The notes beneath the pieces are model-generated. The model made no database searches and was not told the origin of the DNA. It worked only from the letters and a program-made list of their open reading frames with translations. From Chiloscyllium plagiosum (lineage: Eukaryota), in contig NC_057719.1 of the NCBI RefSeq assembly GCF_004010195.1, forward strand, positions 40,872,969 to 40,936,968: a stretch of 64,000 nt of DNA, given 5' to 3'. A program made the position numbers and the translations under genes. Of the stretch, positions 666 to 54,360 are shown one piece after another. Every line of letters starts with the position of its first letter. Position 1 is the first letter of the stretch.

Positions 666-687
666 TCCACACTGACCCACCACCCGT

Positions 688-2441: not shown

Positions 2442-2489
2442 CAAGCCACTACACAGCAGCATTATTAAATAAAGTTGGACAATAGACGC

Positions 2490-3436: not shown

Positions 3437-3450
3437 TGGCTATCCTTAAT

Positions 3451-3659
3451 TAAATGAACTATGGACTTTGTAAATCAGGAACAAAAACTGAAGTTGCTGG
3501 AACAGCTTAGCAGGTCTGCCAGCATATGTGAAGAAAAATCAGAGTTAATGTTTCAAGTCTGGTGACCCTTCCTCAGAAAGGGTCACTGGACCCAAAACGT
3601 TAACTCTGATTTTTCTTCACAGATGCTGCCAGACCTGCTTAGCTTTCCAGCAACTTTTG
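3451..3659 (-). mobile_element. Fold-back Penelope-like mini-element, family B
   Basis: Inverted arms of about 80 bp meet at about 3570-3580, at a CTGAGGA-A-GGGTC core. Perfect 14-bp TSD tggctatccttaat at 3437-3450 and 3660-3673. Confidence 0.85.
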
Positions 3660-4389
3660 TGGCTATCCTTAATACTTAATCATACATTTAAAACTTCTAC
3701 TTAATTTGAAATCTAACTTCTAGATGATTCATCACATTATAATAGTATAATTTCTTCCTCTCCCTCAATGCTGAACTGAAAACCAAATTACATCACATAG
3801 ATGTGATGACAACTTGCTATCATTAAGCATGTATAAAATAGCTTCAGAAAATGCACTGGGCTGTACTGTGGAGGGAAATCTACTATTGAGAAGATAATGG
3901 CTTATAATTGTATGTCTTACATTGCAACAAGCAGGCAGGTGAATATTTTGCACTGGAGAACATTAGTGCCACTTGAAGAAAATGTAATTTAGTCTGGATA
4001 TACTAATGGCTGACTTCAATCCTTGTGATATATAAATAATAATTAGATGTGGCTCATGTATTTGTGCCATTGTGCAAATTTCAAAATTAATTTACAAATA
4101 AGCATTTTAGCATTTGGTAAACCAGCCATTCCATTGTTGTAATTGTATTTATTTATAACATCCTTGTCAAATGCAGTTTAAGATTTCAGTTATTTAGATT
4201 GGGTATAGTAAGTGCCCCACTCCATTTTAACTACCCCTTTCTCAGGTTTCTGCCAGGTTTGGGGAGATTATAATCAACTCTTTATAATTAAATAATTAAG
4301 CATGAAGAATGACTGTTTCGAGAAGCTTCCAAAACTCTCCCCAAACCCGAGCCATTACCATGTGGAGAGAAGAGAAAAGGGAAAATGAT

Positions 4390-4742
4390 ATAAGACCATA
4401 AGACATAGGAGCTGAAATTAGGCCATTCAGCCCATCAGGTCTGCTCTACCATTCAATCATGGCTGAATCGTTTCTTGACCCTATTCTCCTGCTTTCTTCT
4501 GTAACCCTTGATTCCCTTGATACTCAAACACCTATCTATGTCAATCTTATATATACTCAATGACCTGGCCTCCACAGCCTTCTGTGGCAATGAATTCCAC
4601 AGATTCACCACTCCCTGGTTGAAGAATTTTCTCCTTATCTCCATTGTAAAAGGTCTTCCTTTTACTCTAAGGCTGTGCCCTCAGGTCCTCATCTCTCCTA
4701 CCAATAGAAACATCTTCCGAACATCCATTCTGTCCAGGCCTC
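4390..4742 (-). mobile_element. CR1-type LINE 3' end
   Basis: ORF 4453-4644(-) RRKFFNQGVVNLWNSLPQKAVEA is a CR1 ORF2 C-terminal motif; (TAAGACCA)-type tail. Confidence 0.85.
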
Positions 4743-7414
4743 TGCAAGGAATATTAATGATTAAAGGATTTTCTAGGAACAGATTTTCCTCATTAAATTT
4801 AGATAAGGTGGCTTCCCTGAGCAAACAGCACTGAGAAAGTTCAAATGGGAACATCTTTTTCTGCCCATTAATTCAAGCAGACAGGACATCAGGCAGACTC
4901 TGGTACACGTGAGCAATCCACCCTCGCCTTCTTACGCTGTACATTGAGAACATTTATTTGCTCAAATACAGTAAGAAGAAATGTTCATAAAACAAACTGA
5001 CATTCTTTAAATTCCAAAAGCAATGGGCCTTATCTTCTAATATCAACCACAGCAAATATTGAGGCAACCTGTTGTGTGTTAGGACTCATCAGAAGCCCTG
5101 ATCCAAATATATGCGATGGAATTGCCTGAGAAGTTTAAAGTTCCAAAAGGCAGATTTTCACTGTCCAAGATCTTTAAGAATCAAAGTTGTTACACTGTTT
5201 AACCTATAGTCTAACTCAGTGATTAACAACAGAACTTAACCCATCAGACCCACACACAGTCCGAATATACCACCCACCATCCATCTGACCTGACTATCCT
5301 CTGTATGACCCCACCCAACCATTCACTCACTCAACTAGTCACTCAGTGACTCCTCTGAAAACCTTTGTGATCTTTAATTGCTTAGCTAAATGTGGCAGCT
5401 GATATTATAAATATGTGCTGTGTTGTTTGTGCTGTTCATCACAGTGGATGGTTTCTTGACCAGTTTGAAAGATGTGAAAAGATAAGGGCAGAGCAATTTT
5501 CACCACCAATGGTGTTTTCACCGTCAATGGTGATTGCCTAGCGTTGTCACTGATTGGAAGCTCTGGATCAATAAAGGAGCTAGGTATACCTTTGTTCATT
5601 CAAAGTACATAGCTTTTGTTTTCTGAGAAAAGAATACAGTTTGTATTCATATTCCCTCTTGTTTTTCCTGACTTGATATAAAAGTTGTGGATGAGTCAAG
5701 AATATAGCTTGCTAAATGTTAAGTTCCAATTAAATAGCAGTCAAACCAAAGCATTGTTTTTGGCCTTCACCACAAAATCAGTTGCATTATTGTTGATTTG
5801 CTCCCTCCTTGGCCACTGTTTCTGTCCCATTCAGATTATTTGTAAACTTTGCACCTTTTTGATATTCGGCTGAGTATCTAAACATACATCTCTGATATAA
5901 CAAAGACTATCTACCTCGACTTCGATAACATTGTGTCTCCACTGCTGCCTCAGCTGATCTAAGCATGACAATTCTGAGGTTCTGTTGGCTGATCTCTCAT
6001 CTTCCTTGTACTTATTTATTAGCAGCCTGTATCCTGACAACAAATCCCATTTGCCAATCACCCCTATGCTTGGTAATCTACTTGGGTACTTGGTCTGCCA
6101 ATATCTTAACATTTTGATCCTTGTGTTCAAATCCACCCAAAACCATCCAAGAATGTCTCCTTTCTCTAACTCTGGCTTCTTGCACATCACTCTCTCCACT
6201 TCATTTTTGTCTTGTGCCCTCAAATTCCATTTCTAAAATTCAGCACCTCTGCACCTCTCTCTACTTTTCAGAGCTGGATCAAAATCTATCCTTTAGGTCA
6301 GCTATTCTATTCTCTTCTTCGGTTTGTGTAAGGTTTTGTCTTTTTTTCAAATTTTTTCAAGGACATGGGCGTCGTTGGGTGGCCAGCATTTATTGCTTCT
6401 CCCTAGTTGCTGTTGAGAAGGTGGTGGTGAGTTGCCTTCTTGAACCTGCTGTGGTTTAACCCAGGATGCCCTTTTGGAGGGAATTCCAAGATTTTGACCC
6501 AGTGACAGTGAAGGAACAGTGATATATTTCCAAGTCAGAATCATGCAGGACTTGGAGGGGAACTTGAAAGTGGTGGTGTTCCCATACATCTACTGTGGTT
6601 GTCCTCCTACATGGAAGTGGTTGAGTGTTTGGAACATGCTGTCTAAGGAATTTCTGCAATGCATTTTGTAAATAATAGCAGCAGTGTGTACTGAGCATCA
6701 GTGGTGGGGGGAGTGGATGCTTGTGGATGTGGTGCCAGACAAAAGGACCATTTTGTCCTGATTGGTGTCAAGCTTCTTGAGTATTGTTGCAGCTGCACCC
6801 ATCCAGGCAAATGGGGAGTATTGCATCACACTCCTGACTTGTGCCTTGTAAGGTGGTGGACAGGATTTGGGGAGTCAGAAGGTGAGTTACTCACCGCTGT
6901 ATTCCAAGCCTCTGACCTGCTGTTGTAGCCACTGTGTTTATATGGCAAGTTTAGTGAGTTTCTGGTTCATGATGACTCCCAGGAAGTTGATAGTTGGGGA
7001 TTCAATGATGATAACACCATTAAATGCCAAGGGGCAGTGGTTAGATTGTCTCTTATTGGAGATGATCATAGTCTGGCATTTGTGTGGCTCGAATGTTACT
7101 TGCCCCTTGTCAGCCGAAGGCTTAATATTGTTCAGATCTTGTTGCAGTTGACCACTGATTGCTTCAGTATGTGAGGAGTTGCAGTAGTGCTGAACATTGT
7201 GCAATATTGGTGAACATTGCCACTTCTGATATTATGATTGAGGGAAGGTCATTGATGAAGCAGCTGAAGGACACTATTCTGAGGAACTCTTGCAGAGATG
7301 TACTGGAGCTGAGATGACTGACCTCCAATGACCACGCCCATCTTCCTATGTGTCAGGTATGAATCTAACCACCAGAGAGTTTGCCCCCGATACCCATTGA
7401 TTCCAGTTTTGTTA

Positions 7415-8041
7415 GAAATAGAGTGAGATATAACTTTATTGTCACATGTACTCAAATGCGTACAATGAAAAGTTTACAAGTCGCCACTTATGGCGCCATC
7501 TTAGGTACAAAGGTACCGAGGTAAAGATTGTTAAGTACAAATCAGAAAAGTAAAGAAATAAGAAGTCCAGCAATATAGATCATTGGAATAAATGAGAAAA
7601 TAAAGAAATAGAAAATTCAGAATAACAGTCCTTCCAAACCAGTCAGACTTCACCTTGACGCTGTCAAGGCTAGCAGACCACTCTGTAATTAATCTTGAGG
7701 CTAGAAGTCCATGTTGAGGCCACGCTAACCTTCTGACAAGTAGCCGCACTGATCTGAGAAATTACTACGCCAGGTCCGCTCTGAGGCCAGGAGTTGGAGC
7801 TTGCCATGAGGCCTGGAGTCTGAGTCTGTGCTGAGACCAGGAGGAGAAAGTGAGGTCTGCCAATGCTGGAGATCAGAGCTGAAAATGTGTTGCTGGAAAA
7901 GCGCAGCAGGTCAGGCAGCATCCAGGGAACAGGAGAATTGGCATTTCGGGCATAAGCCCTTCTTTAGGGCTTCTTCAGGGCTGAGACCAAGAGTTCAGGG
8001 CATCACCAAGACGAAAGAATGAAAAACACACAAAAGGGAAA
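7415..8041 (-). mobile_element. Non-autonomous retroelement with a Rex1/Babar-like 3' tail, inserted in the CR1 LINE
   Basis: Reverse complement ends TTTCATTGTAC...TACATGTGACAATAAA, a Rex1-like tail recalled from memory. It cleanly interrupts the LINE. Confidence 0.5.
7844..7979 (-). mobile_element. Penelope-like terminus, family A, with decayed hammerhead
   Basis: Same terminal sequence as 9353-9559. TSD gctgagacca(g/a)gag at 7830-7843 and 7980-7993. Confidence 0.85.
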
Positions 8042-9352
8042 AGGGCTCCTTGATGCCACACTCAGTCAAATGCATCCTTGGTGTCAAGGTTTGTCATCTC
8101 ACCTTACCTCCTGGAATTCAGCTCTTTTGTCCATGTTTGACCCAAGGCTGTAATGAAGTCAGGAGATGAGTAGCCCTGGTGGAACCCAAACTGGGCGTAA
8201 CTGAGTAGGTTATTGCTGAGCAGGTGCTGCTTGATGACTCTTTCCATCACTTTACTGACGATCAAGAGTAGACTGATGGGGCAGTAATTGACTGGATTGG
8301 ATCTGTCCTGCTTTGCATGTATAGAACAAACCTGTGCAATTTTCCACCTTGTTGGGTAGTGCCAGTGTTGTAACTTTACTGGAACAGCTTAGCCAGGGAG
8401 CGACACATTCTGGAGCACAAGTTTTTAGTATTATTGCCGGAAAGTTGTCAGGCCCATAATCTTTGCAGTATCTAGTGTTTCCAACTGTTTCTTGATATCA
8501 CATGGAGTGAGTCAAATTGGCTGGAGACTGGTATCTGAAATGCTGGGGACCATTGGAGAAGGCTGAGATGGATCATTCAATCGGCACTTCTTGCTGAAGA
8601 TTGCTGTGAATGTTTCACCCTTATCTTTTGCACTGACTTGCTGGGCTCTTCCGTTATTGAGGATGGGGATATTTGTGGAGCCTCCTTCTCCAGTGAGTTG
8701 TTTAATTGTCCAACAACATTCATGACTGGATGTGGCAGGACTGCAGAGGTTAGATCTGATCTGTTGGTCGTGAGATCACTTAGCTCTGTCTATCACTTGT
8801 TGCTTCTGTTGTTTGGCATGCAAGTAGTCCTTGTGGCAGCTTCATCAGGCTGACGCCTCATCTTCAGGTATGCGTGGGACTGCTCCTGGCATGCCCTCCT
8901 GCACACTCCATTGAACCAGGTTTAATCCCCTGGCCTGATGGTATTGGTTGAGTGGGGGATATGCTGGGTCATGAGGTGGCAGAATGTGTTGGAGTACAGT
9001 TCTACTGCTGTTGATGGCCCACTGAACTGGATGTCCGGTTTTGAGCTGCTAAATTAGTTCAAAGTTTTATTTATAAGCACTATATAAATGCTAATTGTTG
9101 TTGGCTGTACAGACCATATTTTATTTTCCCTCACTGCTGATGATGTTGACTCCTTCCTAGAATAAGGTTCCATGAGTTTCAGTTACTCTCTATTTTCTCC
9201 AAATGACAGTTATTGATGCTTGATCATCAATGGTGAAAATTAGAAGGTTCGTCAATCAGAAATTGGGGGATGTGGGGATGAGGATGGAGGGGTGGCTATT
9301 ACTTTGCAGCCTGATCCTGTTCTTTCTTAAAAGCAAGGATCACTGAGTATTG

Positions 9353-9559
9353 GAGCTGAAAATGTGTTGCTGGAAAAGCGCAGCAGGTTAGGCAGCATCC
9401 AAGGAACAGGAGAATCGACGTTTCGGGCATAAGCCTGAAGAAGGGCTTATGCCCAAAACGTCGATTCTCCTGTTCCTTGCATGCTGCCTGACCTGTTGCG
9501 CTTTTCCAGCAACACATTTTCAGCTCTGATCTCCAGCATCTGCAGTCCTCACTTTCTCC
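9353..9559 (+). mobile_element. Fold-back Penelope-like mini-element, family A
   Basis: Near-perfect inverted arms of about 80 bp join at CTGAAGA (9435). Flanking repeat tcactg(a)gtattg at 9340-9352 and 9560-9571. Confidence 0.85.
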
Positions 9560-11069
9560 TCACTGGTATTGATCAGGAGTGGGAGCATTGACCAGCTTAT
9601 GGTTTTCTTAACTAGATGGATGGGGGATGTATGATGGTTGTGGTGGGTCTGAAAGCATAAAAACCAACTGTATTTCCTGTGCCCTTCCTCTGGCTAAAAC
9701 AAGTTAAATTAGTGCAATTGTGTGTGTTTTGCAGTCTATGCGACTCCATTTTCTCTGAACCATCAAGGAAGCAGACATTTAATTTTAAAGAGTCAGATTT
9801 AATCCCTCCATCATTGCGTATAATATGAGGATAAATCTAATTATTTAGGACAGTTACGTCAATAATCATAATTCATATTTATGTTTTATATTATTATATA
9901 ATTCAATTGTAATATTTTGCTAGTTAACCCTACCGCTTGCTATGACCAGACAGTAATTGGATATAATAAGGAAAATTACACTTCCCAATTGACAATGTTT
10001 AAGCTCACTTTTATTTATGATTGTGTTTCAACCTTATTAATCCACATTTTAACAGACATTATAAACAAACAACAATGTACTGCTGCAAAAGTATTAAGTG
10101 ATTCAGAATTTTCCTTTATGAATCTTATACCTAACTGAGGCTTTGAGAGAAAGGAAAGTGGCCAGACACGGAATGTACATTTTTTGCAGGATCTTACATC
10201 TTTGGTTTCTGCAAAAGTGGATTAATTTTTTAAAAAACGCATAAGAAAAGTTGCATGTGGGAAAAGGATTGCTTCTGATTGCGAGAGCACAGGCCACACC
10301 ACTTGCCTTCAGTCATGGCTTCTTGCTTCTCTTAGGCTGCTACATGACAGGAAGATTGATCAGAAACAGGAGTTAAGGGGACAAGATGCTTCCAGAGGGA
10401 GGAGAAGGACTTGAAGGGTGTGGTGAAGGCTTCTGCACAGGAAGCTTGAGTTACTGGAGTTCTCCCAGGAACATTTCTCTTGCCTGCACCTAAGAGATCC
10501 TGCAATAAATGTGTTGTCCAGATGCTTTCAGGAAGAAAATTCTCATATAATTCTTCCAGCTCTTGGAACTAGATCTGCAGCTTCACAACAGGGCAGGAAT
10601 AGTGCTGATAGTAACACTGTAGGTTGAAGAAAGCAACTTATTTCTAACGGTTTCCAGATGAGGTCCACTGCTACAGAGACGTGACACAAGCTGTTCATGC
10701 TTCCAGGAGAGAAACCAGAGAGAAATAGCATGACTGTGCATGTAGCTTTCAGCAGATAATAGGATTCTCCATAGAGCAGTCTGTCACCAACTGCACAGGC
10801 GTGACTTTACGGATGCTGCAGCTGCCTGTGAGGTATATCAAAATTCCTAAGATTACTCCACTCTATGGAGTTATTGGCCAAGCTGGTAGGTTCCTGCTGT
10901 CCTGACTCTTCCATTTTGTGATTCTTCCATTTTGCACTGGTCTGTTGTTCCATCAATCTTTCACCCATCACATCAAACCAATGGATGGCTTCCAATTCAC
11001 ACATTGTGGGTAGGGAATACAGTATTTTATGTTGTGCGAAGTAAAAATAGAGCATTATTTCATCTGGGA

Positions 11070-12790
11070 GGAATATTCTGGCCTTGGACAGTGAGAGGGA
11101 AGGAAGTAAAATGAAGTGTTTGTGTGGAAAGGTGTTGTGGGCAGGAGAGTTGATATTGGGTGCGATGAAGAAATGGACCAGTATGGTGAGGGAATGGCCC
11201 TTTTGGAATGCTAAATAGGGAAGGGAGAGGAAAGAGTGGATCCATCCTGAAATGTTGATTAACGATTTTGTGCTTATTGAGACTATTTAGGTGGAAGGCC
11301 GGGGGAACCAAAGTGTGGTTTTAAAGTTGGGAGAAGGGACAAGAGCAAATGTACAATGGGACAGACATGATTGAGTGCCTTGTCAACAATAGTGGAGGGG
11401 AATCCTTGTTGACAGAGAAGGAAGACGTCTCAGAAGTGTTGTATGGAAGACTCAGTTATTGAAAGTATTCAATGGAGATGAAAAAACTTGGAGCATGGAA
11501 TAGAGTCTGTACAAGAAGTAGAGTGTGAGGAAATGCACTTGAGGGAGAAGGGAGTCAGTTAGCTCATTTATTTGAACACCCTTAGAAACGGAGTTGAGAA
11601 ACGGAAGACATGATTTGGAAATGGACCAGGTGAATGTCAGGAAAGGATTGAAATTGGAAGCATTGGAATTTTCCAGTTCAGTTTGAGGGCAGGAAATGGC
11701 ACCAATGCAGATATCTATACATCAGAATCATAGCTGAACTGTCTTCACATCTCACAAAAAAAAGGTAGGCATTGCCAGGAGCCATATGGGTTCCAATAGC
11801 AACATTTTAACTTCAAGGAGTAGGCGGAATTGAAGGAGAAGTTGTTCAATGTTAGAAAACATTCAGCCGGGTAGAGGAGGATGCTGGTAGATGGACACAG
11901 ATTAGACATCTGCTCAGAGTAGGAGCAGAAATGCCCAGACCATGCTGGTGGGAAAGTGGAGGTGTAAAGGGTCTGCACACCCATGGTGTAGGTGAGACAG
12001 TTGGGTTGGTGAGGATTCGCCACGGCACATTCGCTGCCGCTGATTAGCCACTGTCAGTTCGCCACCAGCGTTTCTCCACTGGTGTCGTTTGACCTCTGGA
12101 GACTATTTGCCACCGGAAATATATATATGTACTGATTGTTTTCCCTCCCGCCTGTTCTTTCATACTTCTCAGACATATATATCATTTTATTGGTTTATAC
12201 ATAAAAATGAGTTACAAACACTTGCGGTGGCGAAGCGTCCTCAGCAGCCAGTGGGCGGTGGCGAAGCGTCCTCGGTGGTGGAAAGGCAGTGGCTAATCGG
12301 CGGCGGCGAATGGTCCCAGAGACGGTTAGGTTTAGGAAACTGGAAACACTTGACGTGTCAGAGGTCATTAGAAAGGTCAGGCAAATTGGTAAGAGACTGG
12401 AAAAATAATGTTAACATAGAAGGAAATCTGTTCAGTAGATCAGGAGTGAGGTTTATGGGCATTGATGTTTGTAGATCTTGGGAAGTAGATGAAAATGGGA
12501 TGTTTGTATTTCAAGGTTAATAGAGCTGTGGAGGAAAGATCTCCAGTGGAGATGAAGTCTGTGATAAACCTGGAGATGAATGCTTGATGTCCAATAGTGG
12601 GCTCATGGTCCAGCAGTAGCTAGGTGAAGTATTACAGATTTGGTGTTTGGCTCTGAAAGGTACAATAATTTGATAGACAACACCAGCACTATCCCTGTCA
12701 GCAAGTTTGATCATTGGACCTAAGAGAATAAAGTGCTGCATGAACCGAGAGAGGCAGGCCTGTGTAAGTGATGGAAGTTTAAAAGTTAAG
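11070..12790 (-). mobile_element. Old Penelope-like element RT remnant, interrupted at about 12008-12318
   Basis: Minus-strand peptides AECFLTLNNFSFNS and a frameshifted VAIGTHMAP (PLE RT motif B), plus IKLADRDSAGVV, typical of PLE RT. Confidence 0.7.
12008..12318. mobile_element. CpG-rich MITE/foldback-like insert, superfamily unassigned
   Basis: 28-bp inverted repeats (about 12029-12056 and 12285-12312, 3 transitions), repeated TTCGCCAC/GGTGGCGAA units and an AT-rich centre. Confidence 0.7.
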
Positions 12791-13012
12791 ATGGCTAATG
12801 TCATGGCTGAAATATTCATCATGGCCTAGGTGTTGTATTCTTTTCACCATCAGGTTATTCAAATATGATAAAGAAGAAATTAACTGTGGAGCTGCCTAGT
12901 CAGAACACTCACCAAGTGTCAGATAGATTTGCTAGTATAATTTGAGGAGGAACTGCCTGGATTCCGAGCAAAGGGCCCAGTTATAAATGTTAAGCCAGTG
13001 TAGTCATTGTCA

Positions 13013-14808
13013 GGGTTGAGAGTGTGGTGCTGGAAAAGCACAGCAGGTCAAGCAGCATCTGAGGAGTAGGAGAATCAATATTTCGGGCATATGCCCTTCA
13101 CCAGGAATGAGGCTTGTGGGCTGGGGGACTGAGAGATAAATGGGAGGGGGTGGGGCTGGGGGGAAGGTAGCTGAGAATGCAATAGGTAGATGAAGGTGGG
13201 AGAGAAGGTGATAGGTTGGAGAGGAGGGTGGAGTGGATAGATGGGAAAGACGATGGACAGATCAAGGGGGTGGTGCCAAGTTGGAGGCTTGGGATAGGGA
13301 TAAGGTGGAGGGGGGTGGCATGGAATGAGGAAACTGGTGAAATCCGCAGGAGGCAGGGTGGGAGGAGGTGTAGTCATGGGCACCCGCATATACCCCAGCT
13401 ATGCCTGTCTCTTTGTCAGGTACGTGGAACAGTTTTCTTCCGCAGTTACACCAGCACCATCCCACACCTCTTCCTTTGCTGCATTGATGACTGTATCGGT
13501 GCTACCTCGTGCTCTCATGGGGAGGTTGAACAGTTCACCAACTTCACTAGCACCTTTCACCTGAACGTCAAATTCACCTGGACCATTTCAGACACCTTCC
13601 ACCCCTTTCTGGACCTCTCCATCTCCATCAATGGCGAACAACTAAGTATGGACACCTACTAGAAACCCACTGACTCCCACAGCTACCTGGACTACACCTC
13701 CTCCCACCCTGCCTCCTGTAAAAACGCCATCCCTTATTACCAACTCCTCTGTCTCTGCTGCATCTGCTCCCAGAATAACCAATTCCATCATAGAAAATCC
13801 CAGATGGCCGTCTTCTTGATAGATCGCAATTTCCTCTCCCATGTGGTTGACGATGCCCTCCAGCGCACCTCCTCCATTTCCCACACCTCCCACACAACAA
13901 GGACGGAACCCACTGGTCCTCACCTTCCACTTAACCAATCTCTGTACACATTGCCTCATCCTCCGTCACTTCCACCAGTTACAAACAGACCAGACAAATA
14001 GGGACATATATTTCCCTCCCCACCCCTATCAGCGTTCCTGAGAGACAATTCCCTGTGTGACTTCTTTGTCAGATCCATGCCCTCCACTAGCCCACACCCC
14101 ACGTCTGACACCTTCCCTGCCACTGCAAGAAGTGCCAAACCTGCGCCCACACCTCCCCCTCACTTCCGTCCCAAGGCCCCAAAGGATTCTTCCATATCCA
14201 ATAGAAATTTACATGTACCTGTACCAATGTCTTCTACTGCAGCCTATATAGCTTCTTCTACATCCAGGAGAATGGGCGCCACTTGCAGATCGTTTCAGAG
14301 AACATCTCCAGGACACCTGCACCAACCAACCCCACCACCTGAACACTTCAACTCCCCCTCCCACTCCACCAAGGACATACAGGTCCTGGGCCTCCTCCAT
14401 CGACAAACCCTAGCCACCCTATGCCTGGAGGAAGAATGCCTCATTTTCTACCTTGGGACCCTGCAACCACACAGGGTTTATGTGGATTTCACTAGTTTCC
14501 TCATATCCCCCCCCACCTTATCCCTGTCCCAAGCCTCCAACTCGACACCACCCTCTTGACCTGTCCATCAACCTTTCCTATCTATCCGCTCCACCCTCCC
14601 CTACAATCTATCACCTTCTCCCCCACCTCCATCTACCTATCCAGTTCTCAGCTATATTCTCTCCCATTTATCTCTCAGACTCTCTGCCCACAAGCCTCAT
14701 TCCTGGTGAAGGGCTTATGCCCGAAACATCGATTCTCCTGTTCCTCCTTTTCCAGCACCACACTCTCAACACTGTTCTCCAGCATTTGCAGTCCTCACTT
14801 TCTTCCGG
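13013..14808 (+). mobile_element. 5'-truncated Penelope-like element (RT plus GIY-YIG endonuclease remnant) with inverted terminal copy
   Basis: Peptides GVVMGTRIYPSYACLFV, CIDDCIG (YIDD-like), KPTDSHSYLDYTSSHP and HFNSPSHS...LEEECLIFYLGTLQPH. 13013-13350 is the reverse complement of about 14470-14770. TSD agtcat(t/a)gtca at 13002-13012 and 14809-14819. Confidence 0.9.
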
Positions 14809-14919
14809 AGTCATAGTCATCACCAAATAAAATGAAGTCATCAAAGCTATAAAATGTATTGATCTCTGATCCAATTCAGAAAGCAAAAACAAATTTACCT
14901 TACTATGGAAGCGAGTGAC

Positions 14920-16182
14920 TGACTCCATTAGTCTTGTTGGTAACTGTCTCAGGCTGAACTAGACTGTTTACAGTTGGTGTCACAGTTGACCCTGAGATGT
15001 GATTCCAATCATATTTCTGTGCCATCACTAAGGCTGCATTCTGAGAATATTATGCATTTTTGTCTCAGTTTATTTTCAGCCACTTGATAGCTCCAGACTT
15101 GAGTATTTCATGCATTCCCTGGCCAACCTTACACATTCTACTCTCCATACATTTAAGGTCATCCAAAACCCTGCTGCCTGTGTCCTTACTTAGGTTATTA
15201 CTCCTGTTCAGCATCTGTGCTCACATTAGGTCCTGGTTAAGCAATCCCTCAAATTTAAAATGCTCATCTCATGTTTTCATACACCTCATGGCCTCACGTC
15301 TCCCGATCTCACCTTAAGCCCCGAAGTCTGGTCATATACTTGCACTCTGTCAATTATGACATCTTTAACGTTTGCTCTCATTCTCACATTGATGGCTATG
15401 CCTTCAGCAGCCTAGGCTCTGCATTCTGGAATTCTCTTCTGAAATCCCTCCACATCCTCACCTCTCTGGTCAGGCCACATTTGGAGTATTGTGCACAGTT
15501 TTAGGCCCCATATCTTAAAAGTATGTACTGGCCTTAGAGTGTGTTCAGAGGAGGTTCACGAGAATGGTCCCAGGAATGAAAAGTTTAACATATGAGGAAT
15601 GTTTGAGGACTGATTTATACTTAATGGAGTTTAGAAGGATGAGGGGGGATCTAATTGAAACATACAGAATACTGAATGACCTCGGACAGAGTAGATGTTG
15701 GGATGATGTTTCCATTGGTAGGAGAGACTAGGACTCGAGGGCACAGCCTTCGAGTAAAGGGAAGACCTTTTAGAATGGAGAAAAGGAGAAATGTCTTCAG
15801 AGTAGTGAATTTATGAAATTCCTTGTCACAGAAGGCTGTGGAGGCCTGGTCATTGAATATGTTTAAGACTGAGGTATATAAGTTATTGATCAAGGGTTAC
15901 AGGGAGAAAGCGGGAGAATAGGGTTGAGAAACTTATCAGCCATGATTGAAGGGCAGAGCAGACTCAATGGGCTGAATGGCCTAATTTCTGCTCCTATGTC
16001 TTATGGTCTAATGGTCTTTCTTTCTTTATGGTGTACTTTAAGACTTACCTCTGAATGATCTTTTGATCACTTGACCTAATTTCCCCTTATGTGGTTTACT
16101 GACACAGTTTGCTTCACAATGCTAATGTGCCTTTGGAACTTTTCTTTGATTAAAGGTACTATAGGAATACAAGTTGTTGTTG
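14920..16182 (+). mobile_element. Decayed L2-type LINE 3' end, interrupted by a CR1 3' fragment (about 15462-16016)
   Basis: L2-like AFSSLGSAFWNSL codons and a GTTGTTG tail. The insert has LVRPHLEYCAQF (CR1) and a (TTATGGTC)-type tail. Confidence 0.7.
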
Positions 16183-16272
16183 AAATGTGCTGGTCTCGTG
16201 TTGAATACAATAACCATTGCCTCTCAACACATGTTGCTAAGTGGCAATTGTAGTTAGCTGACCAGATAACTT

Positions 16273-16556
16273 TCAGGCGACTCTCTGTGTGGAGTTTGCA
16301 CATTCTCCCCGTGTCTGCGTGGGTTTCCTCCGGGTGCTCCGGTTTCCTCCCACAGTCCAAAAAAAATGTGCAGGTTAGGTGAATTGGTCATGCTAAATTG
16401 CCCGTAGTGTCAGGTGAAGGGGTAAATGTAGGAGAATGGGTCTGGGTGGGTTACGCTTCGGCGGGTCGGTATGGACTTGTTGGGCCGAAGGGTCTGTTTC
16501 CACACTGTAAGTAATCTAATCTAATCTAATCTAATCAAGTAATCTAATCTAATCAA
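16273..16556 (+). mobile_element. HE1/V-SINE-type SINE, 5'-truncated, with (TAATC)n tail
   Basis: Near-consensus central domain with CpGs retained; (TAATC)n at 16512-16556. Confidence 0.9.
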
Positions 16557-17219
16557 GATATAGTCTTCAAAATTTTACACAATGTCCCACTTTATTTGAA
16601 AATGAATATGATCTTTACAAGTAGAAGTGATTGTATACTTTATAAATACAGCATTTCTTTATTGAAACAAAGGCTCCTTTACTCAGATCAGTTTCTACTT
16701 TGTACAAAAATGCTGAATAGCTTTATCAGAGAGTATTTAATAATGTTTATTTAAGACTATAAGTAAATAATGAATGCTGTTAGAATGGTTGATTTAGCAT
16801 CTTGAATGATTTGCATAAAACTACTAAAGAGACACAATTGTGTTCCAGCACAGTTTGAGGGCACAAGGAACAAGAATTCTCTTTTCTGGCTAATGAAGAA
16901 TTCATGGCAATCTTTGTGTTGTGAATGGAAGATAGAAGGAATTAGGGAAGTGGTGGTCACATAGTGTGAATGTATTGCTACCTCAGCTGGCACTGGAGAA
17001 AGGGAGGGAGTAGGAAAAATCAAGGACAGCTGCCAGTTCTCTGTCAAAGTAATGGAGAAATTTTAATTTGCATCATGATTAACTGAAAGCTGCTCATTGA
17101 AGATATTGACAAGGAGGAGCCTTTGACAAGAGAGGCACGGGACAAATCACGCCTGAGCTTCTGTTCCTTGAGAAAGCAGAGATTAGACGGGATTAGTATT
17201 TAGCTCTCCGGTGAGCATT

Positions 17220-17256
17220 TATAAAGGTGACGGAGAGAGGCTGCATTGTTCATTCT
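17220..17256 (+). promoter_or_regulatory. Putative TATA box plus initiator of an internal promoter
   Basis: TATAAAG at 17220-17226 and the Inr-consensus TCATTCT at 17250-17256, with the +1 A at 17252 (32 nt from the first T of the TATA). Lies in repeat-free DNA upstream of the candidate first exon. Confidence 0.45.
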
Positions 17257-17640
17257 TTAAGAGTTAATACAACTTTTGGATACATGGGGATCAGACAGAG
17301 AGGAAGATTCGGAACTGTTTCAGAAATCAACAGCTAAAGATCAAGTTGAGCAGGGAGGGAAACTGACAGTGTAAAGAAGGGAAGATGTACAATATGATAT
17401 TCAAGTCTCTACTGATGAGCTATTTATGTATCTTGATGACTTATGCTCGGCACCACTGCAGTGCCTTTGTTGAGCTCAGCGGTTTATCAGGAGTCACCGT
17501 GTAATCATGTGGAAACCTCAATGATTGCTGCTGGACCAGACTGTCCCTACACATCCTGGATAATGGAGTGTCAAAGGAAAATGGATAGGAAAGTTGTGGT
17601 TTATTGGCTTTATGTGCTGGTTATAAACCCTAACTAGATG

Positions 17641-17657
17641 ATGGATTGGAAAGAACT
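17641..17657 (+). CDS. KIF26A: Candidate alternative first coding exon of KIF26A (MDWKE-L, phase-2 donor)
   Basis: ATG GAT TGG AAA GAA CT is followed by the consensus donor gtaagt (17658-17663). The ATG has a strong Kozak context (A at -3, G at +4) and an in-frame TAG at 17635-17637. CT plus the first base A of exon 19294 gives CTA (Leu), in frame with AAQKLNL. Confidence 0.7.
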
Positions 17658-19293
17658 GTAAGTAAATTCAAGCATCTTTTCCTATATTGATTTACAACAG
17701 TTGACTCCAGACACCTTCATTATATTGGTTATCAATCATATTTAGTAGATTATTCTTTTGGAGTTTTGAAGGAATAAAGAATTTGAGGATTATTTGAGTT
17801 TGTATAAAATATGACCTTTACTTTCCTCTTAATGAACTCATAGAACATTTCATTTTTTAATGTCATTTAAACCCATTGTCTGATTTGATACTGTGATTTT
17901 GATTTCAAATGTAATCTTGTAATTTAAAATTGTTGTTGCCTTTCTGATGTCAGAGGTGGAATCTTGTTCAAAGATACTGATTTAATGCTGGCTCAGAAAA
18001 ATGGCTTCGATCATTACTTCTAAAAGCTTTTATCAAAATAAAAATTCTGCTGTTACTGATAACAAGGAAAGTAATTCAATACTTTTAAATATGATTTCCA
18101 CACCTAAAATAATGAAAGATGATTGAAAATGTCTTTAAGAAGAAATAGAATTCCCTATACTTGATTGAAATTGTAGCAAGTAATCTGATAGTTTTTCCTG
18201 CAACATGCTTTCAACTACAAGAATTGCTTCACCAAAACTTCAGAGTTAGCAGCGGGTTGAAGCTTTGTCTGTCTAACTGAACAGTGGATGTGCAAATGCA
18301 GCCTTTAAGTCCTGTTTCCTTTCACAGTCTCTCCCAAGGGAAATCCTACTCTAGACTTTATTGAAGTAATAATTATTTCATCAGATCTCGTGTATTTCAT
18401 GTCTGTATTTGGACTGGAACCTCCAGAGGCTACAGTTGTCATTTTTATCCAGGATTGACCACTTGCATTGCAGCACATGGTTTACAAAACAGATTTTTGC
18501 ACAATTCAGGGCACGATGCTAATGGTTGTTTTGAAAGTTTAAAATTAAATGTAGCTTTAATAATAAAATTCTGTTACTCGAAAGTGTCCTGTTGGAAAGG
18601 TGAACTTTCACATCTACTCTTCTGTCAATACTGAAAAGCTTGAGTGCTTGATTAGTGATGAATTGACAATTAATTTTTCATCCAAGATCTGAAAATGCAT
18701 TAGTGCTTTCATGTTTTGTTTCATTGAGCAATGCTGTTTTAACGAGCCACTATGGTGCCGAATTATTTATGGCCTGTTGTGTTTGCCTGCTGTTTGCACC
18801 TCTTGAGTAAACCAGAAGCAGAACTGATATAGTAATTAATGGGAAGCTACAAAAGTGACCATTACTATATATTTTTCCAGAAACTGGAGGAATGTGATTC
18901 CTCTGAAATGCAAATAACTTGTTAGATTATAATGTATCGTCTACTCCAGAGTAGTCCATCTGGCCTTATAGTGACAGGAGAATGATTTCAGTTTTTATGG
19001 TGTCACTGAGATTTCTGAAGCCTTGGACTCAGCTGCTGAAGCTGTTCAGCAAGTTATAGTCTAATTGAAACTCTGCTAGGGAGAATTAAGTGAATATTGT
19101 CTTGGCTATATTTCTGCCTGAATCTGCCTATATTAGTCTCTTGACAGAATAGTCCTATGGAATTTGATTAGAATCAAATGAGTTGATTTGTTAAACAGGG
19201 AATGATGACATTGAACATCTGTTTTGTTGGGCCAAATTACATTTCACTCTTAGTAACACAACTGTTTTGTTTTTGTCTCCTTCTATTCTACAG

Positions 19294-19477
19294 AGCAGCA
19301 CAGAAGCTGAATCTCTCTTCAAAGCAAAAGAAAAACCATCCACTTCTCCAGCATTCGCACGAGCTGTCAAACAGCAGAACAAATTTCAGTGGTATTTTGC
19401 AAGTGTCCCCTCCCCCCGCACCACCATGCCTTTTGAGGGCTGTATGTAAAGTCAAGGACAACCCAGGCATTGGAAAG
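19294..19477 (+). CDS. KIF26A: KIF26A internal exon, pre-motor segment ([10 protein letters not shown]...[23 protein letters not shown])
   Basis: Polypyrimidine tract plus cag acceptor; donor AAG|gtatga; 184 nt, phase 2 to 0. The peptide matches the KIF26 pre-motor motif. Confidence 0.95.
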
Positions 19478-19953
19478 GTATGAGCTAAGTCTGCTAACAG
19501 TTGTCTTTGATGCGTGTCACTGCTGAAATCTGTGTAAATATAGATACATTAAATAAATCCTGCATTTCTGTTAAACTTAATTTTAAATGAATATCATTTA
19601 AATATAATAAAACACATCTCTTGATAAAGTTTTATTACTTACAGATCATTTGATGATGTTTTGTAGACATACATTTGTAAACTTCTGGAATGTTCCTGGC
19701 TCCAAGCTGAAAACTGCAGTGCGTATATCACTTTGTAGTGCATTCATAGGGCTAAGTGGAGTCCACCACATTTCTTTATACACGGTCCAAAGTATAATTT
19801 AACACTGGAATTTATAATATGATCTTAACTTTATCAGTATTAATTGGATGCATGATGTTGAATTTCAGAAGACAAGCATTTCCAGTACAGACCCTCACAG
19901 TCAGTTTGCACACTATTTCATCACCCACAGCAAACTCTATTCTGTTATTTACG

Positions 19954-20255
19954 TAGAAACCCTACAGTGTGGAAGAAGGCCATTCGGCCCATCGAGTCCA
20001 CACCAATCCTTCGAAGAGCATTCCACCCAGACCCACCCTTTCTACCCTGTAACCCTGCATTTCCCATGGGTAACCTACATATCCCTGGATGCTACAGGCA
20101 ATTTAGCATGGCCAATCCATCTAACCTGCACATCTTTGGACTGTGGGAGGAAACCGAAGCATCCTGAAGAAACCCACACAGTCACTTGAAACTGAAATCT
20201 AACCCAGGAGGTCTCTGGCACTGTGAGGGAATTATTCTAACCACTGAGCCACCAT
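19954..20255 (-). mobile_element. HE1/V-SINE-type SINE
   Basis: Same SINE family in reverse orientation. Confidence 0.85.
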
Positions 20256-21686
20256 GTCTCTTACAGAGTCTCTTAATGTTAGGTGCTGTTGTTTAAGGAT
20301 GTCCCTGCACACATGCTAAGTACCCCCATTTTAACTGCAACAGTAGATGGAATCTTATTCCTTCCACTTAGTGGGTTTTAGTAACGGGGAAAGGGAGAGG
20401 CCCCTTTTCAATCAGGTGGAAGGGTATCCAGGTGGGACACTGCCACCATTCTACCTCCACTTGTTAATGGAGGCCCTTCAGTGGATAATTAATACCCCAT
20501 TAATAGGTCTCATTCCACCACTGTTGATAATAACCCAGCAGTAGAGGGGAATGCTTGCTTTTCAGGAAATACAACACACAAACTCTGTTCGCATTGTTTG
20601 AGAATTCCCCAGGGCTGGAGGGGTTAGATGGTCCCCTCACTCAAGAAGATGTTTGTACCTGAACAATACCAGTGGCATTGGGAAGGAGGTGGGGGAGCTT
20701 CTCACTGACAGCCACCTCTGTCCTTGCTGCAATTCCCTTTCCACATGCGCCCCTCTCCTGCTATCCCTCACTTCTTGTGGGTGCAGCAGTCATTGTATTC
20801 CCAGTGGCACTGCCATTTGATTGAGGTGCTGGCCTCTGCTTGGCTGGTAGCTCTTGGTAGGCTGGACCTGCACTCCATAGTCCTTGAATCTTCACGTAAG
20901 TCCCGTGACCAGCCTGTCAAGTGTCCAAGTGGATTAAAGTACGTTGAACTTTGCCAGAAAGAGGAAGCCATGCAACTTTCGAGACCCCTGCCACCTCCAT
21001 AAGATTCTGCACTGTGATGTCATGATGAACTATTGGGTGAAAACGTGATGTTTTGGATGAACAATTCTAAGATTGTACTTCTGAAATAAATATTGATTAC
21101 AAAAGGGAACATTCATTTGAAAGTGATATTTAACATAGCCCTGAAGTTTTTGAAGAATGCTTTTCATCAGCAAATAGCAGCTCTGTGCAGTATTATTGAG
21201 TTCCAATTTATACAGAAAAATAGTTAGAAAAGAAGCATAATTCCTCAATCTTTCAATATCTGAACTTTCATTTATCAGTACAATTCTTTTGTGGATAAGT
21301 GATCAGTCCCTTCTAATCTGTTTTTAACAATAAAAATAGTTGATGCAGAATGATTGATCAACCAGCCGAACTTCTGACTCATGTTGTCTACCTAATGACT
21401 CAATTGAGAGACTCATCTGAAATCTAAAGCTGCCTACACTCCCCAAGCCATTAACCTCCACTGCAGGGAATGAGTACATGTTCATTTGCTGTCATTCTTG
21501 CCTCTGAGTCAGAAAGTTACTGCCCCAGTTCAGGATATGTGCACCTACCTTTTGTTGACCTTTTAGTAACCAGTTCCACTTTTTCAAAAGAACTTTCGTT
21601 TTTGTTAGTTGTGGTGTTCACAAAATACTTTGACCTTTTTTTTAGGGGATCTGATATGGTGTTTTTGAAATGCAAATCTTCTCCAG

Positions 21687-21996
21687 CTTTGACTGGGCTG
21701 ATTTTGGTTAAAGTTAACAGCTGGTTTAGAAACTCCGAAAAGTGTTGCCAGCAAAATATAGGTTTAAAGAGACAATATCACAGATTCATTGAATTTCTAC
21801 AGCATGGAAGCAGGCCTTTCGGCCCATCGAGTCCACACTGACTTTGACTAGGCTGATTTTGGTGAAAGTTAACAGCTGGTATAGAAACTCCGAAAAGTGT
21901 TGCCAGCAAAATATAGGTTTAAAGAGACAATATCGCAGATTCATTGAATCTCTACAGCATGGAAGCAGGCCTTTCGGCCCATCAAGTCCACACTGA
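21687..21996 (+). repeat. Tandem duplication, 2 x 155 bp
   Basis: 21687-21841 versus 21842-21996: 6 substitutions, no indels. Confidence 0.95.
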
Positions 21997-22137
21997 CCTT
22001 CAAAGAATATCCCACCCACTCCCACCCTCCACCCTATCCCTGTAACCTTGCTTCCCCATGCTAATCCATCTAACCTGCATATCCCTAGAACTATGGAAAA
22101 TTTAGCATGGCCAATCCACCTAACCTGCATATCTTTA
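21936..22137 (-). mobile_element. HE1/V-SINE-type SINE, 3' half
   Basis: AATTTAGCATGGCCAATCCACCTAACCTGCA and the GGCCTTTCGGCCCATC tail. Confidence 0.8.
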
Positions 22138-41329: not shown

Positions 41330-41542
41330 GTGAAGGTAATGGTACGGATTTGTCCTTCTCAAGGAGCAAACGATACATCGGAGTCAATGTCTTTCCTGAA
41401 AGTAGACTCTCGCAAAAAACAAATAACCCTTTATGACCCCTCAGTGAGTGGTCATTCTGGTTCTGCCCACAGACGAGCCCCAGCTGTTGCTGCTCCAAAA
41501 ATGTTTGCATTTGATGCAGTTTTTACCCAAGATGCCTCACAA
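41330..41542 (+). CDS. KIF26A: KIF26A exon, start of motor domain (VKVMVRIC...[15 protein letters not shown])
   Basis: tttcag acceptor, CAA|gtgagt donor; 213 nt, phase 0 to 0. Confidence 0.96.
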
Positions 41543-41682: not shown

Positions 41683-41776
41683 GCTGAGGTCTGCTCAGGA
41701 ACAGTGGCAGAAGTAATTCAGTCTGTTGTGAATGGTGCCGATGGCTGCATATTTTGCTTCGGTCATGTCAAGCTTG
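41683..41776 (+). CDS. KIF26A: KIF26A exon ([32 protein letters not shown]), first half of the P-loop
   Basis: ttcctag acceptor, G|gtaagc donor; 94 nt, phase 0 to 1. Not in the supplied ORF track; translated by hand. Confidence 0.96.
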
Positions 41777-47295: not shown

Positions 47296-47558
47296 GAAAA
47301 ACATATACTATGATTGGAAAAGACAATTCAATGCAAAATCTTGGCGTGATTCCCTGTGCAATATCCTGGCTTTTTAAACTAATAAATGAACGCAAGGAGA
47401 AAACCGGCACTCGATTCTCGGTCAGGGTATCCGCTGTGGAGATCTGGGGCAAGGATGAAAATCTTCGGGATTTGTTATCTGAAGTGGCCACTGGCAGCCT
47501 CCAGGATGGTCAGTCTCCTGGCGTCTATCTCAGGGAAGATCCGATCTGCGGAACTCAG
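47296..47558 (+). CDS. KIF26A: KIF26A exon (KTYTMIGKD...[11 protein letters not shown])
   Basis: ttccag acceptor, CAG|gtattt donor; 263 nt, phase 1 to 0. Confidence 0.96.
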
Positions 47559-47824: not shown

Positions 47825-48008
47825 CTTCAGAATCAAAGTGAGCTGAGAGCCCCTACGGCAGAAAAAGCTGCCTATTTCCTTGATGCGGCAATAGCCTCCA
47901 GAAGGACCAGTCGGCCAGATTGTGATGAGGAGGAGAGAAGAAACTCCCATATGCTCTTTACCCTTCACATTTACCAGTACCGAATGGAGAAGAGTGGAAA
48001 AGGGGGAA
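47825..48008 (+). CDS. KIF26A: KIF26A exon ([16 protein letters not shown]...[24 protein letters not shown]), switch I region
   Basis: tgcag acceptor, A|gtatgt donor; 184 nt, phase 0 to 1. Confidence 0.96.
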
Positions 48009-48237: not shown

Positions 48238-48397
48238 TGTCCGGGGGGCGTAGCCGTTTGCACTTGGTCGATCTGGGGAGCTGTGAAAAGGTTTTAAGCA
48301 AGAGCCGAGATGCTGGTGGTGGCCTCTGTCTATCACTTTCAGCTCTGGGCAATGTCATTCTGGCGTTAGTTAATGGCGCTAAGCATGTGCCGTACAA
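48238..48397 (+). CDS. KIF26A: KIF26A exon ([17 protein letters not shown]...[13 protein letters not shown]), switch II region
   Basis: ttttgcag acceptor, AA|gtaagt donor; 160 nt, phase 1 to 2. Translated by hand. Confidence 0.96.
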
Positions 48398-50490: not shown

Positions 50491-50653
50491 GGATAGCAAA
50501 CTTACTATGCTCTTGAGAGAATCGCTGGGGAATATAAACTGCAGAACAACCATGATCACCCATATTTCTGACTCTCCTGCCAACTATGCAGAAACCCTTA
50601 CAAGCATTCAGCTTGCGGCACGAATTCATCGTATGAGAAAGAAAAAGTCCAAG
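50491..50653 (+). CDS. KIF26A: KIF26A exon, end of motor domain ([29 protein letters not shown]...[11 protein letters not shown])
   Basis: tag acceptor, AAG|gtccgt donor; 163 nt, phase 2 to 0. Carries a kinesin SKLTxLLxESLG-type motif. Confidence 0.95.
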
Positions 50654-50861: not shown

Positions 50862-53800
50862 TACGCCTCAAGTTCTTCAGGAGGAGAGAGTTCTTGTGAA
50901 GAAGGCCGGATTCGAAGACCACCTAATTTAAGACCCTTTCACTCAAGAACCACAGCTCTTGATTCAAATCTTCCTGTATTAGGAATACCCAGTGATCCAG
51001 ATTATTCATCAAGCAGTGAGCAATCATGCGATACAGTTATTTATGTTGGTCCTAATGGTGCAGCACTGTCTGATCGAGAGCTAACAGATAATGAGGGACC
51101 ACCAGAGTTTGTCCCCATAATCCCTTCTCTTAACAAGAAGCATGACCCCAAGAAAAGCAAGGAAACTATGATTGTTGGTAAGAGGACTGAAAGAGACTAT
51201 TTCAAATGTAACACTTTTGCTGAACTGCAGGAAAGATTAGAGTGCATTGATGGGAGTGAGGAACCCATCCAGTTTTCCTGTGAGCAAGGACTTTTCATCT
51301 GTAGTAATAATCCAACCCCTATGAGGATGGAGAATGTGCAATGTCTAATATCACACGAAACAGCACAATCTGGCCCGGCAACAGAAAAGGTACCGGTACC
51401 TTCTCACAATCTCTATGGAAAACATTCTCCAATAGAAGTGGTGTCTCCTAAAAAGGGCCAGAGCTTGCATGCTCCGTTACCAGTTCAGCAGCATAATGGA
51501 TCTCCAGTGAAGAGCCCTTCTCACTCGATAACAACTGAACATTCAAAAGTGCAAACCAAAGCTGAAGGAAGCATAATGGAATTAAGTGGTAACACTGGAA
51601 TGGATGGAGTGAAGGAGACAATCACAGCTTCCACAAAAGTGCCCAAATCCAACAGCCCGAAAGCACACAAGCCGGCCCACACTACGCCTGCGCCTGCCGT
51701 GAGGGAAAAGTTGTTTTTCAATAGAAGGCCGTTGCCAAGCCCTGCACCACCACCTCCCCAAACAAAAGATAGAAAAATCGATTGCTCTGAATCTAGTAGT
51801 GGCGGTGTGATAAGAACTCCTCCAGTAGGAATGAGCCATCAGGTAACAAATAAATCGGATTCCATTGTAACTGGAGGTGCTGCTGCACATTGCAAAAGCA
51901 AATACAAACAATCCACTGGATCAGATGCAAATTGTATAAGGTCAGCATTCAGGAATGATTGTATTGACCGAGATATGTTGACTACTACTGTGACTTTGCA
52001 GCAGCCTGTGGAACTGAATGGCGAAGATGAGCTGGTATTTACTGTTGTAGAAGAACTGTCATTTGAAGGGATTTTGGAAAGTGGTCGACCTGCTAGCATT
52101 ATTAGCTTTAATAGTGATTGCTCACTTCAGGCCTTGGCCTCAGGCTCACGGCCTGTCAGCATTATTAGTAGCATAAACGATGACTTTGAAGCTTATACCT
52201 CACCGGCAACCACTGCTGGAGCAAACATGGACAATGTTGTGCCAGTTGCAGATGATTCTTTTTGCAACAGTAGCAGACGATCATCAATTAGTTCCTGGCT
52301 CAGTGAACTAAGCATCTGTGCTATAGAAAGTGATGGGGCTCAACCCTCTGACACTTTCATTGTGCAGTCTTGTTACAGTTATGGTGAGAACACTCTGGGA
52401 TCTTTTAATTTGGACTCATCTGACATGCTGCAAGACATGTGTGCACCACTGATGCAGGCTCAAAACAGTAACTTGACTGATAGCTTCTTCAGAGTAACAG
52501 AAGCTAACAAAAGCACTGGTTCAATCAAACCTGTTGTCAACACCGACAAAGGTTCCAGTGCCTTAGGTTTATCCAAAGTGGTGTCTGGCAAAGTTGTGAT
52601 TGGCAGTAATGATTCATCAGCAACTAAAACCAGCACCCCAGTGCATCGTCATGTCCCCGTAATTTCTGAAGATCCTATTTGCTACTCTAGTCTTCCCCGG
52701 AAAATGAAATCTACCTCATCTGTGAACCATAGCGGTAGCACAGTAGATTGTGGAGATACTCTACAGCAAGAAATCGAGTCTGAGGATCCTTGGTTACAAC
52801 GCACAAGTGGCCACTCAGAGCCAAAAGCTGAGGATCAAGCACTTTCTGTCAAGTTTGCTCCCAAATCTGCTTCTCACAGTCAAATCAAACAGCAAATGAA
52901 AACATCCCATAATACTGGAACTATTCCTCGGCTTAACAAGTCTCATACACCTGCTTCCTGTACACAACGGGTTGTTTATGGATGTGAAATGGTGAATAAA
53001 TCTGATGGATTCAACAATGCCATTGGTGCAAACACAAGAAAAAATGATGCGCCAGCTAAGGTATCACAAGTGAAAAAAGGAAATGCAATGGTTGCTACAA
53101 TGCCAATAATGCACACCAGTGTTAATACTGGAGCTATACCCAAAGACCAACCAGATTTTGCTTCAGTGACAAGCAGCTTAAAATCAGCTTCATGCAAGAA
53201 AACTTCAGTGCCCAAAACAAGCTTGCTACCAAGGCTCAATGGGATACCTCCAGCTCCCCCAGTCCGTAAATCCAGTCTAGAGCAAAGAAACAGAGTTACT
53301 CCACAAACTAATGCTCAAAAATGTACCAGTCCAGAGGTAGTTAATGTATCACCATCAAAATTAGAGGATGAAATAGATGGGAGACTAAATGTTGCTTCTT
53401 GTATTGTTGAAGGTAACAACAGCAGATCAACAAACATAAAGTCTGACCACATGTTTGTTAAAAACATTTCAAGCTCAAAATCCCGAATGCCTAAACCTGA
53501 GTCCGTGCATCGCTGTGGGAGTCTGCAATCACTTGAGAGATGTGATAGTCTTACATCAGTTGGATCCAAACATAGCATGTCTAAGGAAAGTGGCCACCTC
53601 GTCAACAACAGTAGAGCAGGCCGATCAGTACCGAGGCTTGGTGTGTCACCATCAGCTCCAGTAATGTCCACTCCGACCGTTCCTGTCGTCCCTGCTACTG
53701 GGAAATCCAATCAAACCAAAAGTACTTCCACTAATAAGGTGATGGTGTCAGGAAATAAATGCCGAAGCCTTTCTACAAGTGGTGTGAAAGGGTTAAGCAC

Positions 53801-54360
53801 ATCGGTTAAATCATTAACCCAATCAATGGGTCGAAGTTCCAGTGTGCCATCAAATGGAAAAACAATACCTCGTTCAACACAGGTAGCAATGTGCAAACCT
53901 GGTAAAGGAACTATCATGGGAACAAAGCAAGCCGTCAGGGCAGCAAACAGCCGTGTCTCTGAACTAGCTTCTGGGGCGTCCTCCAGTAAAGTGGGCCACT
54001 TGAGAGGATCCACTGACTCTGACAGTGGGAATGACAGTGGGGTCAACCTCAGCGATGAAATATCACAGATTCCAGTCTTGCCTTCTCCATACAGTAAAAT
54101 AACTGCACCAAGGAGACCTCAACGCTACAGCAGCGGGCATGGTAGTGACAACAGCAGTGTTCTTAGTGGAGAGCTGCCTCCAGCCATGGGAAGAACAGCT
54201 CTTTTTTATCATAGTGGTGGCAGCAGTGGCTATGAAAGTATGATACGTGACAGTGAAGCTACAGGGAGTGCATCATCTGCACATGATTCCATGAGTGAAA
54301 GTGGAATGTCTTCATCTGGTCGTAACAGAAGTTCAAAGTCCCCCAAAAAACGGATGGCTG
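50862..54360 (+). CDS. KIF26A: KIF26A giant exon encoding the Ser/Pro-rich tail (YASSSSGGESSCEEGR...SPKKRMA-G)
   Basis: tag acceptor, G|gtaagc donor; 3499 nt of open frame that includes ORF 51168-54386. KIF26 blocks present: DPDYSSSSEQSCDTVIYVGP, FAELQERLECIDG, LQQPVELNGEDELVFT, YSKITAPRRP, HSGGSSGYES. Across the exons, residues such as DNPG, VCSG, GTRF, YLRED, AKHVPY and SDRE recall KIF26A rather than KIF26B. Confidence 0.93.

Follow-up and report, generated by a model that had tools for sequence, protein, structure and literature searches.

Does the KIF26A locus of the bamboo shark Chiloscyllium plagiosum encode, besides the full-length kinesin, a shorter form that starts from an exon and a promoter of its own inside an intron? 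A reading made from the DNA letters alone (here called the sequence-only reading) proposed such a form for the window, by which we mean the whole 64,000-nt stretch of DNA that was analysed. It placed a TATA box and an initiator (Inr) ahead of the start codon of a short first exon, which would begin the protein with MDWKEL and splice to the exon that opens with AAQKL.

The coding elements were found where that reading had put them (Table 1). The ATG at 17641 has a strong context, with A at −3 and G at +4, and an in-frame TAG stop lies upstream (17635-17637). A second in-frame ATG at 17638, immediately before 17641, had been overlooked. A double methionine start was found in 15 of 27 teleost models and a triple one in a marmot record. 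The stop of the upstream open reading frame (uORF) abuts this double start codon as TAG ATG ATG at 17635-17643. Following the final CT, the donor at 17658 is GTAAGT, the acceptor reads AG before 19294, and both are in phase 2 as claimed. Splicing nine exons from 17641 gave exactly 4777 nt with no stop codons and GT-AG at every intron, and the motor (KVKVM) began at residue 67 of the short model, in agreement with the predicted start about 65 residues before the motor domain. A strong ATG followed by a short open frame and a phase-2 GTRAG donor is a rare combination, with two candidates in positions 1-19293. No second copy of 17000-17800 was found within the window, and Rfam returned no matches over 16000-20500.

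Table 1. Features of the short KIF26A form in the window (position 1 is the first letter of the 64,000-nt stretch).
Feature	Position	Strand	Basis
TATA-box motif TATAAAG, candidate core promoter	17220..17226	+	sequence; function inferred from position just 5′ of the start of contig cover
Inr-like TCATTCT, within the pyrimidine run before AGs ending at 17261 and 17263	17250..17256	+	sequence; X2 contig passes through
Alternative and most likely first exon; 5′ limit approximate	17241..17657	+	contig cover in 4 runs
In-frame uORF, 64 codons, one of several uORFs	17443..17637	+	sequence
Coding part of alternative exon, (M)MDWKE + CT, phase 2	17638..17657	+	sequence; leader matches teleost models
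Intron, 1636 nt, GT..AG	17658..19293	+	joint 17657^19294 in one X1 contig
Shared exon AAQKL...GIGK, common to canonical and short forms	19294..19477	+	contigs in 4/4 runs
Motor-domain exon	41330..41542	+	spliced model
Motor-domain exon	41683..41776	+	spliced model
Motor-domain exon, Pfam Kinesin match	47296..47558	+	spliced model
Motor-domain exon	47825..48008	+	spliced model
Motor-domain exon	48238..48397	+	spliced model
Motor-domain exon	50491..50653	+	spliced model
Large exon, central and tail region	50862..54360	+	spliced model

The canonical last KIF26A exons were not found before window position 64000. A possible alternative last exon at 56780-56988 (+) has an open frame after an AG and a phase that fits the donor at 54360. 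Its translation matches the atypical tail of Heterodontus isoform X2 (P0002) at ~72% identity. One of 465 proteins among the matches listed has such a tail, and use of this exon would remove the C-terminal coiled coil. A 500-base run of N at 38632-39131, in the intron 3′ of the shared exon, could conceal an exon; contigs connect 19477 directly to the sequence at 41330 across this intron. The window also holds a 155-nt tandem duplication at 21687-21997 and a short TAATC array at 16512-16557.

Transcript evidence came from the contigs of four of 24 listed runs (X1-X4), representing two organisms and three studies, which we guess to be likely RNA. A 250-nt contig from X1 joins 17657 to 19294 across a GT..AG intron with zero mismatches, and this is the junction that the sequence-only reading had predicted; the short side is 27 nt, below the 31 nt at which the tool marks a bridge. 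The same joint was absent from the contigs of X2, X3 and X4, all of which cover parts of the exon. Cover of the exon extended over 17435-17657 in X1, 17241-17434 in X2, 17419-17650 in X3 and 17465-17630 in X4, with no single contig spanning 17241-17657. Contig cover was zero in all four runs both at 16800-17240 and in the intron at 17658..19293. In each of the four runs, a long contig also continued from the shared exon into the canonical exon upstream, seen as a loose end encoding ...SAAASFFI. This canonical exon lies outside the window, and the alternative exon therefore sits within a long intron. Splicing thus joins the alternative exon in frame with the one that opens with AAQKL, and the short KIF26A isoform is almost certainly real. 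Contig depth, a poor measure of amount, was 3.6-4.9 over the alternative exon versus 22-35 over the canonical contig, and is only a hint that the short form is the minor form.

The promoter motifs were present as described, with TATAAAG at 17220 and, within TCATTCT, an A at 17252 that lies 32 nt after the first T of the TATA. Contig cover begins near these motifs and no joint from an upstream exon into the alternative exon was listed in the four runs, but the exact +1 at 17252 was left unconfirmed, with the X2 contig reaching 17241, 11 nt further upstream. Judging by their frequency, the TATA and Inr motifs are not specific by themselves: the plus strand of the window carries 57 TATA-like hexamers, three of which are followed by an Inr at 26-34 nt. 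A relaxed TATA-Inr pattern gave 16 matches on both strands versus 5.65 in shuffles. A bacterial promoter scan stayed at chance level, its model being irrelevant to a shark host. Overall, the alternative exon likely has a promoter of its own within the intron, near 17220-17250.

The name KIF26A, also given by the sequence-only reading, agreed with the phylogeny. The window model grouped with Callorhinchus, teleost and tetrapod KIF26A (support 99/97) in a 16-row tree built under LG+G4, from which long-branch rows were left out, with pangolin and three fast teleost rows among those omitted; joining the window gene to shark KIF26B was rejected on this tree (p-AU 8.5e-63). A 24-row tree placed the gene with Callorhinchus KIF26A (100/99) and outside KIF26B (100/99) and left the KIF26A clade open. 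NCBI labels the two closest shark proteins among the matches listed (P0001 and P0002) as KIF26B, a label we rejected because the tree puts both in KIF26A. Brienomyrus P0313 and P0428 are also named KIF26B by NCBI; in the 24-row tree, Brienomyrus formed a long branch that fell outside the clade of KIF26B. A kinesin-motor match (PF00225) at 47283-47645 lies over the motor exon, and the window model carries the 12-residue motif of the KIF26 family as well as the DLGS motif. It is 98% identical to shark relatives across the region from AAQKL to the motor. Full-length vertebrate KIF26A (kinesin-11) has the same motor and tail, with 87% identity between the window model and Heterodontus P0002. It has about 310-360 residues before AAQKL, ending in SFFIR and including PF23081. 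Microtubule binding without ATPase activity has been reported for the family in the available parts of two papers (PMC10585591, PMC3387196).

Among proteins, the short start was found in the first search, with five of the 120 proteins listed beginning (M)MDWKEL-AAQKL. The automated bony-fish models Parambassis ranga X2 (XP_028251398.1) and Centropristis striata X2 (XP_059208804.1) have the same start as the shark. The isoform had been called hidden, which is an overstatement: automated annotation already lists teleost isoform models. Over all searches, the pattern M[DE][WC][KRS][EDA][LVI] preceded AAQKL in 34 of 465 proteins among the matches listed, namely 31 of teleost type, two bamboo-shark KIF26B models and one marmot record. 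Eels, bonefishes, carps, catfish and spiny-rayed fishes are included among the teleost-type carriers, and Lucifuga has the leader in two paralogues (P0116, P0344). The teleost short models are 1,650-1,780 aa long, and PF23081 was absent where tested. None of the 465 proteins among the matches listed was a shark KIF26A record with the MDWKEL start, and a profile search that ranked such starts first had only teleosts on top. In Menidia isoform 3 (P0220), AAQKL is preceded by another N-terminus, of 27 residues, which may stem from a further alternative first exon or from faulty prediction.

Conservation of the start among vertebrates had also been suggested. This stood for teleost KIF26A and for the marmot model, which is of KIF26B type, but not for tetrapod KIF26A, where none of 138 records among the matches listed had the leader; in that survey the 90% clusters conceal isoforms (15 of 120 members of the bird cluster were seen) and many records are partial. 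SFFIR ended the sequence before AAQKL in 115 of the 117 tetrapod KIF26A records that have such sequence. These records are weak evidence that the leader may be absent from tetrapod KIF26A. Conservation of the leader was seen at the protein level in the 34 records, and at the DNA level in two close organisms only.

Two other accounts of the exon bear on whether it yields a protein. The pyrimidine run at the putative promoter is followed by AGs that could open an internal cassette exon at 17262 or 17264, or the acceptor could lie further upstream; stops would then end the N-terminal part, followed by re-initiation or RNA decay. Contigs cannot show a 5′ end, but the X2 contig passes through this site with all its 194 nt aligned and no loose end, there is the lack of any joint into the exon already noted, and the TATA motif is found just upstream. 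We regard a cassette exon as very improbable. The leader itself raises the other account. Between 17252 and 17637 it has 12 upstream ATGs versus 8.2 expected from composition, a feature that the sequence-only reading did not mention, and two of these, at 17563 and 17581, have a strong context and lie in frame within the 64-codon uORF that is closed by the TAG touching the main ATGs. A comparison with organism B showed 7 differences in 232 nt of the leader and 8 in 189 nt of the shared exon. The seven changes listed for the shared exon are all synonymous, at ~42 synonymous sites, and the leader is conserved beyond such sites (Fisher p = 0.002, one species pair). All five listed leader differences in organism B alter uORF amino acids, and the constraint therefore seems to be on the DNA or RNA and not on that peptide. 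Folding of the leader RNA gave z = +1.14 and no stable structure. Given its length and its 12 upstream ATGs, the leader likely holds translation at a low level. The exon could even be transcribed and spliced while the uORFs allow no appreciable amount of the protein, in which case conservation would concern a regulatory element or a translationally silenced mRNA, and low contig depth, a weak measure, would fit this. However, shark, teleosts and the marmot model have conserved the six residues and the phase, which points towards selection on the peptide encoded by the exon, and the uORF is without sign of coding constraint. Such silencing is thus unlikely, if less so than a cassette exon, and we retain a short kinesin made from its own first exon as the preferred reading.

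The age of the exon depends on the leaders in the other paralogue. Bamboo-shark KIF26B models start with MECSEV (e.g. XP_043551360.1, isoform X2), and the Marmota monax record KAF7472015.1, a 121-aa gene prediction, starts with MMMDWKAV; the next exon of the marmot record is identical to shark KIF26B at 47 of 62 positions versus 35 of 65 to pangolin KIF26A. Like the short form of the window, these KIF26B models have a leader, here of 6-8 residues, joined at the same AAQKL point, but they belong to the other paralogue and the shark leader has diverged, with only M, E, the length and the splice point in common between MECSEV and MDWKEL. The isoform might be real in shark and teleost KIF26A while the leaders of KIF26B arose separately or are artefacts of gene prediction, with no origin before the duplication. 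KIF26B is barely sampled and only three KIF26B-type records carry the leader, one of them the marmot prediction and others the diverged MECSEV, and among the matches listed the lamprey and invertebrate rows have no leader. On the other hand, MMMDWKAV and the cyprinid KIF26A start MMDWKEV agree at 6 of 7 residues with the same join, which is unlikely by chance. Separate origins are therefore the less likely history, though one with a real share of the probability, and the comparison of leaders suggests that the exon is probably older than the split between KIF26A and KIF26B.

What the short form lacks was defined on the long proteins. PF23081 (KIF26A/B tri-helical) spans residues 73-152 in Heterodontus P0002; the short Parambassis P0078 lacks this domain and keeps PF00225. 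At least two CxxC motifs precede AAQKL in 143 of 147 long proteins, and four cysteines are invariant in 15 aligned long proteins; from the two CxxC motifs, the N-terminal module is probably zinc-binding. A structural model of the domain had three helices with a mean pLDDT of 68. Foldseek gave no match to this model at E <= 0.001, the best VIA Z was 5.3, and for the domain there was no PDB sequence match below E 0.37 and no usable Atlas match. According to the available parts of the papers concerned, it is the KIF26 C-terminus that accounts for Wnt5a-driven degradation and for the binding of Nedd4 (PMC5924538, PMC3387196), and Dvl3 bound a KIF26 construct with the N-terminus and the motor (PMC4791138). 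Because that construct includes the N-terminus, Dvl3 binding could be affected in the short form. The familial reflux variant KIF26B p.S123L, as given in the available text (PMC9683562), falls by its number in the part missing from the short form. In Caenorhabditis elegans, a gene of the KIF26 family has a long isoform and one shortened at the N-terminus, VAB-8L and VAB-8S (PMC12533845, available in part), and resembles the shark in this respect. In contrast to VAB-8S, which is without the motor domain, the shark short form retains the motor in full, with only the residues before AAQKL missing; a motorless isoform of the VAB-8S type was ruled out by the position of the motor in the short model.

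Several mammalian papers, each available in part, bear on a short form. In mouse embryos, a stop cassette placed ahead of Kif26a exon 4 abolished the transcript entirely as measured by qPCR (10.64898/2026.05.20.726728). The forward primer of that study translates to a match near pangolin residue 1672, and the mouse qPCR would therefore detect a short Kif26a as well. From the 87.4% figure in the same paper, we infer that exon 4 in the mouse directly precedes the AAQKL exon. The mouse Kif26a result fits a loss of the exon from mammalian KIF26A, at those stages. For Kif26b, an exon 1-2 knockout in mouse C2C12 cells left no detectable RNA or protein (PMC9409126), and a C-terminal KIF26B antibody gave ~220 kD bands in MEFs, with a smaller form going unmentioned in the available text (PMC5590807). 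Together, these two observations speak against a general occurrence of the short KIF26B in mammals, should it exist there. No description of a short KIF26A or KIF26B isoform was found in the full-text literature, a search that spans neither supplements nor most subscription papers, and the leader motif occurred in no paper of that literature. In the available parts of KIF26 texts, the word isoform either did not occur or had an unrelated sense (10.64898/2026.05.20.726728, PMC10585591, PMC5924538, PMC4791138, PMC13355504, PMC5590807, PMC9409126, PMC9683562, PMC7832431), except in the C. elegans paper, where it concerns the motorless VAB-8S (PMC12533845). It is quite possible that a mammalian short form is listed elsewhere, e.g. 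in Ensembl/GENCODE.

The best explanation, which we hold with good confidence, is that shark KIF26A has an alternative exon, likely with its own promoter, that is predicted to give a short kinesin without the N-terminal domain. The intronic TATA promoter would provide a second route for expression of KIF26A. The predicted product would have the motor and tail and lack the N-terminal ~330-360 residues, including the four-cysteine tri-helical domain. Some cells may then produce KIF26 as a microtubule-binding scaffold that is devoid of the N-terminal interaction module and would still be subject to tail-dependent (Wnt5a, Nedd4) degradation, and the upstream ORFs would throttle the amount of short protein. 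This functional reading, with its missing module, retained degradation and throttling, is tentative and falls somewhat short of an even chance. The exon would have persisted in KIF26B and, among KIF26A genes, in those of sharks and teleosts, whereas tetrapod KIF26A probably lost it. More broadly, and with only a slight balance in favour, an exon present before the duplication, in the jawed-vertebrate ancestor, may act in both paralogues as a switch for KIF26 with or without the four-cysteine domain, with loss in tetrapod KIF26A, a short KIF26B made by mammals and the uORF leader serving as a conserved translational gate.

The mechanism, an alternative-promoter isoform, is ordinary, and the exon is deeply conserved. 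We found no published account of the isoform in shark KIF26A, of its link with KIF26B or of its apparent loss from tetrapod KIF26A. Both KIF26A and KIF26B are genes of disorders in the development of brain, gut nerves and kidney, and the available parts of the texts treat each as one full-length protein. The short form amounts to a natural deletion of the one KIF26 domain without an assigned function, and would therefore allow the role of this domain to be tested directly. The short form would be spared by fish knockouts targeted 5′ of the AAQKL exon and possibly by such alleles of mammalian KIF26B. If the proposal is true, a mammalian short KIF26B made in some tissues would evade first-exon knockouts and variants.
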